Shown one piece after another: positions 43,651-44,375 of a DNA stretch of 64,000 nt. Within the stretch, counting starts at the first letter, position 1, and the number at the start of each line of letters is the position of its first letter. The stretch is taken from positions 64,001 to 128,000 of the forward strand of contig CAVVLJ010000002.1 of NCBI GenBank assembly GCA_963749075.1, in the 5' to 3' direction. This stretch comes from an uncultured Pseudomonadota bacterium (GTDB taxonomy: Bacteria > Pseudomonadota > Alphaproteobacteria > JACZXZ01). Position numbers and translations under genes: made by a program. The notes under the pieces are model-generated. The model was given only the letters and a program-made list of their open reading frames with translations. It did not search any database and had not been told where the DNA came from.

Positions 43651-44375
43651 GTGCGCCGTGACAAGGCGGCGCTTTCCAGTGGGTGCAAGGCCCACCCGGC
43701 AACCGCTCCAGCCGGAAGCAATCGGAGCAGTCATGGAGGTAACGAAATGACTGAAGCCTCTGATTAGCGTGTCACGAATTGGTGACCGCGCGAGTGTGCA
43801 GGCCGCAACGTGAGTGAACGCTGAGCAAGCCTCGAAAAGGACGATGCACAGGCCGACCCGACGACCCTTTCGGGGAAGGCTGATACGGCTGGGAGATATG
43901 AGCGAAGACGACTTCCAGCTGCTGTGCCGGGGTAGTGGCGGCAGCATGTACACAAGGAAAGCGCACGCAACACGGGAAGCCCCGAGGCGTGGTCAGGGAT
44001 GACCAACCGGACGCCCGCGAGGGACAGGCCGGGCGCCGTGGGGTGGCGGAGAGGTTCGTAGTACCGCTGAAGCCGGGTAACGCCGGTGGAGGGAAGGGAC
44101 CTCAGTTCAAGACAGACGCAATACGCGGTGAAGGACCTGGAGATTGGGCAACCTATCAACTCCGAAGAGTGTTCAGAAACTGCAGATGGTGTTGCACGCG
44201 AACTGTGAAGGCGTGAGGTCTTGTCCGAGAGCCGGATGCGGGAGATCCGCACGTCCGGTTCGATGAGCGGGGTGTGGAAACGGAGCCAGGGTCGAACCAG
44301 TGAGGCACCGCCAGACGAAAGGGGCGGGAACAGATATGTTCGGCCTACAGCCACCGCGCCACACCTCGACTCTAC
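43651..44375 (+). ncRNA. ORF-less group II intron (725 nt), IEP internally deleted
   Basis: 5' GTGCG. Domain V gagccggatgcgggagatccgcacgtccggttc (44229-44261) with AGC triad. Long domain VI ending ctcgactctAC. EBS1 accctt (43864-43869) complementary to IBS1 aagggt (43645-43650). Confidence 0.92.

Follow-up and report, generated by a model that had tools for sequence, protein, structure and literature searches.

A 64,000-nucleotide stretch of DNA from an uncultured alphaproteobacterium (hereafter the window; contig CAVVLJ010000002.1 of assembly GCA_963749075.1, positions 64,001 to 128,000) contains a group II intron of 725 nt that lacks the gene for its intron-encoded protein (IEP), a reverse transcriptase (RT), and that is probably a non-autonomous element mobilized by an IEP supplied in trans. 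The intron occupies window positions 43651-44375 on the forward strand with all ribozyme landmarks present, and its identity as a genuine group II intron without its RT gene is confirmed. An earlier reading of this DNA made from the letters alone (the sequence-only reading) had left two possibilities side by side, mobilization in trans and a deletion in place. A deletion junction shared at three sites, the presence of a cognate IEP and the near-identity of the window copy and one sister copy favor mobilization in trans over a one-off deletion. The comparison of copies suggests that the element most likely multiplied as a retroelement without an open reading frame (ORF), using an IEP provided in trans.

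The landmarks noticed in the sequence-only reading, namely the GUGCG start, the AGC triad of domain V, the long domain VI and the terminal AC, were all found where it had placed them. When the whole window was scanned against Rfam, just two matches reached or exceeded the gathering score, both on the forward strand inside the intron, and these correspond to the 5' part of domain I (RF02003, group-II-D1D4-4; 43677-43813; 99.1 bits, gathering score 49, E 7.3e-21) and to domains V and VI (RF00029; 44227-44375; 44.4 bits, gathering score 40, E 1.8e-5). Together with near-identical copies elsewhere in the genome, these matches define the element. The 5' end read from the sequence is GUGCG (GTGCG in the DNA, 43651-43655, forward strand), which agrees with the GUGYG typical of group II introns, and the five bases G1 T2 G3 C4 G5 are invariant in 58 of 58 ORF-less copies. 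At the 3' end the intron closes with ...CTAC at 44375, a terminal AC that fits the group II AY. Domain V (44229-44261, forward) includes the AGC triad (44230-44232) and ends in a loop of 5 nt; it is covered by the RF00029 match, and its helix (helix 32 of the RNAalifold consensus) is 99.3% paired across the 58 copies. Domain VI (44265-44372, forward), defined by RNAalifold helix 33 (columns 678-690/782-797, with three pairs changed on both sides), is long and branched and contains the unpaired A44369 as candidate branch point, which is the seventh base from the 3' end, falls in column 794, unpaired in the predicted fold, and fits the bulged A placed 7-8 nt from the end of such introns.

Domain IV, from which the protein gene is missing, is reduced to a basal stem, a DIVa-like part and a closing hairpin (44108-44223, forward; RNAalifold stems at columns 507-512/628-633 and 514-517/599-602). 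Within it a remnant reading frame of 40 codons runs on the forward strand from a TTG at 44144 to a stop at 44264-44266. Its first 20 codons, GNLSTPKSVQKLQMVLHA after the TTG, are those of the IEP N-terminus and differ from the full-length copy's protein at one residue (V for A), which bears out the IEP-like N-terminus that the sequence-only reading had recognized; past these codons the frame is an out-of-frame read-through into domain V. The last codons of the IEP, VKA and the stop, are likewise present as GTGAAGGCGTGA at 44205-44216, but they are not joined to the TTG frame as had been supposed, lying 61 nt away and out of frame. The proposed ribosome-binding site GGAG does exist as a sequence (44139-44142), but it ends only 1 nt before the TTG, and AAGGA at 44131-44135 is better placed. 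The deletion junction lies between 44202 and 44205, where ...GCGAA is joined to GTGAAGGCGTGA through two unexplained bases, CT. It sits in the 11-nt loop of a hairpin, CACGC/GCGTG (44195-44215, forward), whose stem columns (605-609/621-625) are paired in 100% of the cells of the alignment. Comparison with the full-length copies suggests that about 1258 nt of the IEP gene were lost, while the whole ribozyme and the would-be IEP-binding part of domain IV were retained.

The assembly that was searched comprises 5.49 Mb in 23 contigs, with an estimated completeness of 96% and contamination of 5.15% from marker genes, and the indications are that it is a soil metagenome bin. A DNA search of this assembly returned three ORF-less copies of 724-725 nt each at three unrelated sites, namely the window copy (contig C2, 100%), a copy on C4 (99% identical) and a copy on C21 (96% identical). 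The deletion junction is identical in all three, with IEP remnants on both sides (the N-terminal 20 codons and the last 4 codons), and the 18-nt core of the junction, present three times in the genome, was found in no locus of the 181 collected other than the three own copies; the junction is absent from all 150 foreign loci in that set. Two full-length relatives of 1983 nt each, on contigs C17 and C22, carry 1258 extra bases between query positions ~562 and 555, and the C17 copy has an intact RT/maturase ORF. The further copies and the full-length parent for which the sequence-only reading had suggested a search are thus both at hand, and of the features that it had named for a dead remnant, a single copy, a genome devoid of a cognate RT and no splicing, the first two do not describe an assembly with three copies and an intact IEP gene. 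At all five resident copies the flanking DNA differs up to the very ends of the intron, while all five 5' exons end in GGGT and all five 3' exons start with C. A comparison with 10 other genomes of the same family returned a single weak match, of 83% identity over 182 nt.

The distribution of differences among the resident copies provides further insight into their history. Only 5 of 725 positions differ between the window and C4 copies, which indicates a recent last round of copying. Against the C17 full-length ribozyme, the window copy shows 33 differences in the 5' 552 nt and one in the 3' 160 nt, and the C21 short copy differs from the full-length ribozyme at 5 positions in the 5' part and one in the 3' part. 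Between the window and C21 copies there are 30 differences, 28 of which fall within nt 53-334 (window 43703-43984, domain I), and nt 483-725 are identical; the 3' 390 nt are almost identical in all five copies. About 28 domain-I differences jointly separate the window and C4 copies from the full-length copies of this genome, and the assembly contains no full-length copy with a domain I of the window type. This mosaic suggests recombination or gene conversion between intron copies. The shared, unusual junction and the lack of a full-length copy with the window-type domain I imply at least one copying event after the ORF had been lost.

The C17 copy contains an open frame of 443 codons, starting at a TTG, that encodes an RT/maturase. 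A profile search identified RVT_1 (E 1e-32), the GIIM maturase domain (E 2.7e-16) and TIGR04416 (333.7 bits, cut-off 300), with no match to an endonuclease or HNH domain beyond these, and the protein retains the motifs YADD and DADLADYF. It looks in frame and complete, and we regard it as a putative helper whose activity is not assured. Apart from the IEP frames, the RT-like frames of the assembly are limited to three copies identical to one another (C4:463439-464272, C17:486088-486921 and C20:243932-244765), with an open frame of 511 aa and 33% identity to the IEP over residues 21-306; these are a second retroelement family of this genome. Among five genomes with short copies that were checked for an IEP, three (G011, G012 and G013) carry cognate proteins at 89-91% identity, and one of them, G013, has four full-length copies and four intact IEPs against six short copies, with another intron splitting three of the latter. 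A 50%-identical IEP family occurs in G013 and in G014, another of the five.

To describe the targets of the element, we compared the 50 copies whose flanks extend for 30 nt or more on each side, and these occupy 50 distinct sites. The target consensus is A-16 A-15 T-14 G-13 T-12 C-11 C-10 G-9 ... T-7 ... G-4 G-3 G-2 T-1 upstream and C+1 ... C+7 G+8 downstream, which can be written as AATGTCCGCT-NN-GGGT, then the insertion point, then C. A mutual-information scan of each variable intron column against each variable target position gave three clear signals, linking target -1 with intron nt 214 (paired in 52/52 copies; A-T 39, G-C 13), target -4 with nt 217 (96% paired; C-G 37, A-T 12, G-C 1) and target +1 with nt 285 (98% paired; G-C 41, U-A 6, G-U 4). 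This covariation places the exon-binding site EBS1 at 43864-43869 and EBS3 at 43935. At the window locus EBS1 (ACCCTT, intron nt 214-219, forward strand) is complementary at six of six positions to the intron-binding site IBS1, AAGGGT, which forms the end of the 5' exon (43645-43650); the pairing proposed in the sequence-only reading is therefore recovered independently from the family-wide data. EBS3 is a G (intron nt 285) facing the first base of the 3' exon, IBS3 (C at 44376), which is C at all five own copies and at 40 of the 50 targets of the family. The nucleotide 5' of EBS1 is variable (G/A/T/C) with +1 remaining C, and the 3' exon is thus read by a single EBS3-IBS3 pair with +1 and not by a delta-delta' pair beside EBS1, which is IIB-like. 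Excerpts of one account give such a single pair as the way in which IIB and IIC introns read the 3' exon (PMC4075523).

EBS2 is probably the GGAC at 43839-43842 (intron nt 189-192, forward), which lies in a hairpin loop and was chosen, on weak grounds, by its position and its complementarity to target positions -13 to -10. These bases are G T C C in the family logo and GGCC at the window locus (43638-43641, forward), where three of four pair. The candidate is near-invariant and pairs at four of four positions in 34 of 55 copies when an offset of 1 nt is allowed, with one compensatory case (L152). The mutual-information scan of the copies gave no signal for EBS2, and its placement is only inferred since the GGAC is otherwise invariant. 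Taken together, the 50 distinct sites and the covariation of EBS1 and EBS3 suggest that the copies were inserted by reverse splicing. Two other possible properties of the targets were considered and set aside. A target hairpin, suggested by 3' exons seemingly complementary to GTCCG, was seen as stems of at least 6 bp on either side of the site in 6 of 50 targets compared with 14.7% of re-paired controls, a weak test as the controls share the same motifs. The strand bias that might accompany an endonuclease-less IEP was represented by four of five own copies on the G-rich strand by cumulative GC skew, a sample too small for a conclusion.

Relatives of the short form were collected with a gapped pattern, a 10-nt domain IVa motif and a 14-nt domain V motif 22-52 nt apart, which fits short forms only. 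It matched 30 stretches from 23 assemblies (counted by accession prefix) in a collection of species-representative genomes and at least 120 stretches in soil metagenome contigs, with no match in viral contigs. The assemblies include 17 metagenome-assembled genomes (MAGs) labeled Alphaproteobacteria, two Bradyrhizobium isolates, one Microvirga tunisiensis, one MAG labeled Gammaproteobacteria (on a 392-kb contig) and two MAGs of other phyla, whose contigs of only 1.4-3.3 kb could reflect mis-binning. A BLAST search with the window copy against the 150 loci identified 55 complete ORF-less copies of 710-748 nt that are 86-93% identical to it, and one additional complete copy, 91.3% identical and unannotated, is intergenic on a finished 375-kb conjugative Bradyrhizobium plasmid. 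The junction varies among relatives, and the 151 pattern matches are mostly 54 nt (76 matches) or 60 nt (49 matches) long, the others ranging over 50-61 nt. GAAAGCG occurs as 7-nt direct repeats on both sides of the ORF in the resident full-length copies, and the 54-nt form is the exact product of a deletion between such repeats, leaving GAAA as the hairpin loop; the junction of the window copy and its sisters differs from that product. Every junction form sits in the loop of the same 5-bp hairpin CACGC/GCGTG.

A maximum-likelihood tree of 58 short and 8 full-length copies, built from 545 + 160 ribozyme bases, placed the five own copies and one metagenome copy in a clade with 100% SH-aLRT (approximate likelihood-ratio test) support. 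Inside this clade, C21 clusters with the pair of full-length copies (97) and the window copy clusters with C4 (99). Full-length and short forms are interleaved, so that the full-length label needs at least three changes on the tree, and junction classes are clustered but not cleanly (four changes for the 54-nt class, 11 for the 60-nt class). We read this pattern as several independent ORF losses, each followed by multiplication, with the reservation that only 8 full-length copies were sampled and that recombination could explain part of it. Near-identical short copies at different sites are common, as in the sets L116/L120/L157/L095 and, within one MAG, L019/L028/L037.

Some of the relatives are themselves interrupted or rearranged. 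In one MAG (G013; contigs C8 and C34) another group II intron, distinct from its ORF-less host, interrupts three ORF-less copies, each time after intron nt 412. The splitting introns, at L014:3121-5154 (reverse strand) and L032:1343-3375 (forward), are 2033-2034 nt long and start with GTGCG, and their RT frame is open in L032 (444 aa) and broken in L014. The arrangement, judged from its sequence, is that of a full-length intron nested in an ORF-less one (a twintron). A further ORF-less copy is cut in domain V, after nt 592, by a group II intron of 1889 nt with an open frame of 499 aa (L036:1969-3857, forward). In Microvirga tunisiensis an insert of 661 nt in an ORF-less copy (L021:782-1442, forward) starts with GTGCGCCGTG and ends with ...CTCTACT. 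No long RT frame is present in the insert, and the arrangement resembles one ORF-less intron nested inside another. Two ORF-less copies of 722 and 723 nt stand head to tail at L102:19-1463 (reverse), with the 5' GTGCG of one following directly on the 3' end of the other. The 3' ends of L016, L017, L122 and L126 read ...GACTTATA then TGAGG, compared with the usual ...GACTCTAC then C, and either the 3' terminus is altered in these copies or its boundary was misplaced.

The fold of the short form was examined with RNAalifold on the 58 short copies. The consensus contains 205 predicted pairs, and 98.6% of the 11867 cells (pair by copy) are paired. Changes on both sides were found for 25 of the 205 pairs, compared with a mean of 13.8 in shuffled data (none of 500 shuffles reached 25) and with 3-8 when partners were slid by 1-3 columns, and for 187 cells compared with 63 in the shuffles. 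Both controls are biased in favor of the real fold, the slid one since the fold was derived from the same sequences and the shuffled one since the sequences are related. With this in mind, the size of the excess and the occurrence of several pairs with three Watson-Crick types argue for selection on the predicted fold after ORF loss. Two of the 205 pairs are broken in the window copy, none in the C4 copy and three in the C21 copy, which puts the window copy near the family median, the worst members having 9-20. Where the 55 foreign copies are otherwise unanimous, the window copy differs from them only at nt 111 and at the junction, and no invariant catalytic position is changed.

The structural class of the family was judged from its ribozyme features and from the endonuclease-less IEP, on which basis we call it IIE/IIF-like. 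Candidate alpha is CGCTC in a hairpin loop at intron nt 54-58 (43704-43708, forward) and is complementary to candidate alpha', GAGCG, at nt 250-254 (43900-43904, forward), which is in the terminal loop of a hairpin (stem columns 259-268/289-297, four pairs changed on both sides) that lies between EBS1 and EBS3. The two are complementary in 55-57 of the 58 copies, and both sides are invariant, so that no covariation stands behind the pairing. The tip of domain V is GCGG-GARAU-CYGC, with a 5-nt loop, in the eight commonest variants, which account for 51 of 58 copies. The IIE and IIF lineages, in the excerpted description on which we draw (Nagy et al. 2013, PMC3753933), are IIB-like, measure 450-700 nt without the IEP, have a 5-nt domain V loop and carry alpha' at the tip of the Id3 stem-loop. 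The present family resembles them in its ribozyme of about 700 nt, its 5-nt domain V loop and its IIB-like EBS1 and EBS3, and may do so in its candidate EBS2 and in the location of its candidate alpha' in a hairpin loop, where the pairing is invariant and devoid of covariation.

The mechanism that we propose for the element combines these features. The intron would be transcribed, and its RNA would bind the RT/maturase of a full-length sister intron, in this genome the intact C17 copy, and be spliced out with the help of this borrowed protein. The resulting RNA-protein particle would reverse-splice into DNA where EBS1 ACCC(UU) can pair with an upstream GGGT and the EBS3 G with C+1, and EBS2 GGAC, pairing with GTCC at -13 to -10, probably adds to the choice of site. 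The borrowed RT would then copy the RNA into DNA, presumably primed from the nascent DNA strand at the replication fork as for RmInt1, a mode that is expected since the IEP has no endonuclease domain.

Several observations weigh against this account. Both long ORFs that flank the intron run on the other strand, and a scan of 42900-44900 found 0 sigma-70-like promoter sites and 0 terminator-like sites. Contigs from RNA libraries cover only 43621-44385, and because the flanks of the locus (43351-43620 and 44386-44700) are essentially uncovered these contigs stem from relatives in other organisms. IBS2 pairs at three of four positions at the window copy, and a single mismatch is likewise present at all three own sites. 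The C17 protein deviates at 12 positions where six relatives are unanimous, with a G for V/I in PGxDG that is also found in C22 and a G for D in FEADL that is unique to C17. Since the copies are mosaic, recombination has blurred their genealogy and the exact order of events. The statement that copies and helper share one genome rests on the binning of a metagenome that is 96% complete with 5% contamination. Two of the other genomes also fit less well, as G014 has three ORF-less copies (L012, L031 and a third) with a best IEP of only 51% identity, and G015 has one (L023) with no IEP match at E<=1e-20; completeness is not stated for either bin, and these copies are possibly orphan ribozymes or the bins incomplete.

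Part of this evidence also speaks for an inert relic, a copy that arrived by retromobility and is now silent, being neither transcribed in the sense direction, spliced nor mobile. Its antisense position, the absence of a promoter-like site from the scanned region, the imperfect IBS2 and the state of the helper genes, with 12 lineage-specific substitutions in the sole intact cognate IEP and a premature TAA that breaks the frame of the second copy (C22), are all compatible with such a fate. We nevertheless consider it unlikely, given that the window copy has only two broken pairs, about the family median, retains every invariant catalytic position and differs from its C4 sister at just five positions. 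Much less credible is the view that the three short copies arose by separate deletions in place at a hotspot between short repeats. Short direct repeats do exist at both ends of the ORF in full-length copies, the commonest foreign junction (54-nt, 76/151) is the expected product of their recombination, and the tree makes it probable that the family lost its ORF more than once. The junction of the resident copies, on the other hand, is not repeat-mediated, includes the extra CT, is the same in three of three copies and was not seen in 150 foreign loci, and the shared domain-I differences of the window and C4 copies set these two apart from the resident full-length copies.

The slightest chance of all is given to an artefact of assembly or binning, in which repeats were collapsed or organisms mixed. 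The estimated contamination of the bin and the position of one full-length copy at the very start of contig C22, a repeat-induced contig break, could be cited in its favor. The contigs bearing intron copies range from 168 kb to 1.2 Mb, however, and the short copies sit inside those of 168, 548 and 750 kb with unique flanks; the same architecture recurs in 55 complete copies from independent assemblies and on the finished Bradyrhizobium plasmid, and the near-identity of the 3' 390 nt in the five own copies is as expected of one population. Mobilization in trans by a borrowed IEP remains for these reasons the reading that we favor.

The closest known systems are the TeI3/TeI4 introns of Thermosynechococcus elongatus, and the comparisons drawn here follow excerpts of the published accounts. 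As in those introns (Mohr et al. 2010, PMC2882425), the ORF was deleted from domain IVb with one break point in all copies, N- and C-terminal remnants of the ORF persist on both sides with the remnant frame disrupted, copies occupy different sites that fit EBS and IBS, and related ORF-containing introns are present in the same genome, as helpers there and as putative helpers here. Twintrons, which TeI3/TeI4 form, are here found in relatives. The systems differ in that trans mobility was proven by experiment for TeI3 and is here inferred from sequence, in that TeI3 reflects one deletion event in one genome whereas the present family has several junction types, interleaved full-length copies, and members in 23 assemblies and at least 120 metagenome contigs, and in that the IEP here consists of RVT_1 and GIIM only and has no endonuclease domain. 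Target recognition resembles, by description and not by sequence, that of RmInt1 from Sinorhizobium meliloti (Garcia-Rodriguez et al. 2014, PMC4075523), where EBS1 reaches to -7, EBS2 covers -9 to -13 and a single EBS3/IBS3 pair lies at +1. The RmInt1 protein itself reads a few bases farther out, and RmInt1 needs T-15 and G-16; the present targets have the conserved A-16 A-15 T-14 in that region, and the conserved 3'-exon bases are C+7 and G+8, unlike G+4 in RmInt1.

Bacterial group II introns without an ORF are also described, in the sections of the reports used here, for dnaN of Trichodesmium erythraeum (PMC12584367) and as C.te.I1 of Clostridium tetani (PMC4424553). The ORF-less dnaN introns depend on the RT of a related full-length intron (PMC12584367), whereas the C. 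tetani genome has no IEP (PMC4424553) and the present genome has one. Both are splicing elements in housekeeping or expressed genes, unlike the window intron, which is intergenic, antisense to its neighbors and multi-copy. Reviews, as far as the excerpts go, call bacterial ORF-less introns rare, place them nearly always beside a related IEP-encoding intron and regard non-mobile derivatives as short-lived, and they acknowledge that RT-based searches could miss such introns (PMC4424553, PMC3245105). Our literature search found no description of this family or of any ORF-less family spread over multiple species, although single members may already be listed. The kind of element is already known from TeI3/TeI4, and it is the scale of its spread that looks new.

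Internally deleted transposon derivatives such as miniature inverted-repeat transposable elements (MITEs) keep the parts that are recognized by the enzyme of autonomous copies, use that enzyme and can outnumber its producers. Unlike in MITE-like elements, the recognized part here is a catalytic folded RNA that carries out the DNA insertion itself and finds its target by RNA-DNA pairing. Spliceosomal introns and non-LTR (long terminal repeat) retroelements are presumed to descend from group II introns, and a key step in that evolution was the parting of RNA from protein, with many protein-less introns sharing a trans-acting factor. To our knowledge, this protein-less, trans-dependent state is documented in only a few bacterial genomes. 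The present genome is a clean natural example, with one junction, three sites and one intact helper. Of greater interest, perhaps, is the family to which the element belongs, for which soil data yield at least 150 related loci of the ORF-less form. Its members lost the ORF repeatedly at one and the same hairpin, some form twintrons, and intron bases covary measurably with target bases. On balance, and with reserve, we lean toward viewing it as a family in which the ORF was lost repeatedly at one domain IV hairpin, and which persisted for long (up to about 12% divergence, with structure-preserving changes) and whose members multiplied as non-autonomous retroelements in a wide range of soil Alphaproteobacteria and on the conjugative plasmids of these bacteria, at times in genomes where no cognate helper is found. 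Such a spread fits poorly with the published view of rare, short-lived bacterial ORF-less introns, and the family would have been overlooked because introns are usually found through their RT gene. It raises the questions of how often the ORF is lost, how long orphaned ribozymes survive and how broad helper specificity is, and the 725-nt ribozyme with its separable 443-aa helper could serve as a scaffold for gene targeting.

The RNA data come from a search of 20 runs that included six RNA libraries, and four RNA libraries from four studies were compared at 88% likeness. In library X17 a contig of 105 nt bridges a junction of the 60-nt type, and loose ends continue into ORF sequence. Short and full-length forms are thus both present in soil RNA libraries, where carry-over of DNA is possible, and this has no bearing on the window copy. 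A few contigs in X17-X19 join ~44102-44111 to 44220-44223 and skip 108-120 nt, nearly all of domain IV, with only 28-30 nt on either side; they may represent relatives with a smaller or different domain IV.

Two long ORFs, both on the opposite strand, flank the intron at the window locus, at 42657-43568 (303 aa) and 44380-45057 (225 aa). Neither has a Pfam or NCBIfam match, and the intron is inserted 4 nt past the stop of the 225-aa ORF. The 15 kb around it have the appearance of a variable or defence island. Its genes encode a caspase-domain protein, an IS1595-type zinc-ribbon fragment (40551-41141), a DUF3800 protein (41478-42404), an O-antigen-ligase-like protein, an asparagine synthase and an MmeI-type restriction-modification enzyme of 979 aa (50354-53293). 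The gene for the caspase-domain protein (37204-39522, forward strand) is about 4 kb from the window copy, and on the Bradyrhizobium plasmid the distance between the ORF-less copy and a gene annotated "caspase family protein" (L181:4040-5902, reverse strand) is 315 nt. The presence of caspase neighbors at both loci may be coincidence or may reflect a common type of island.

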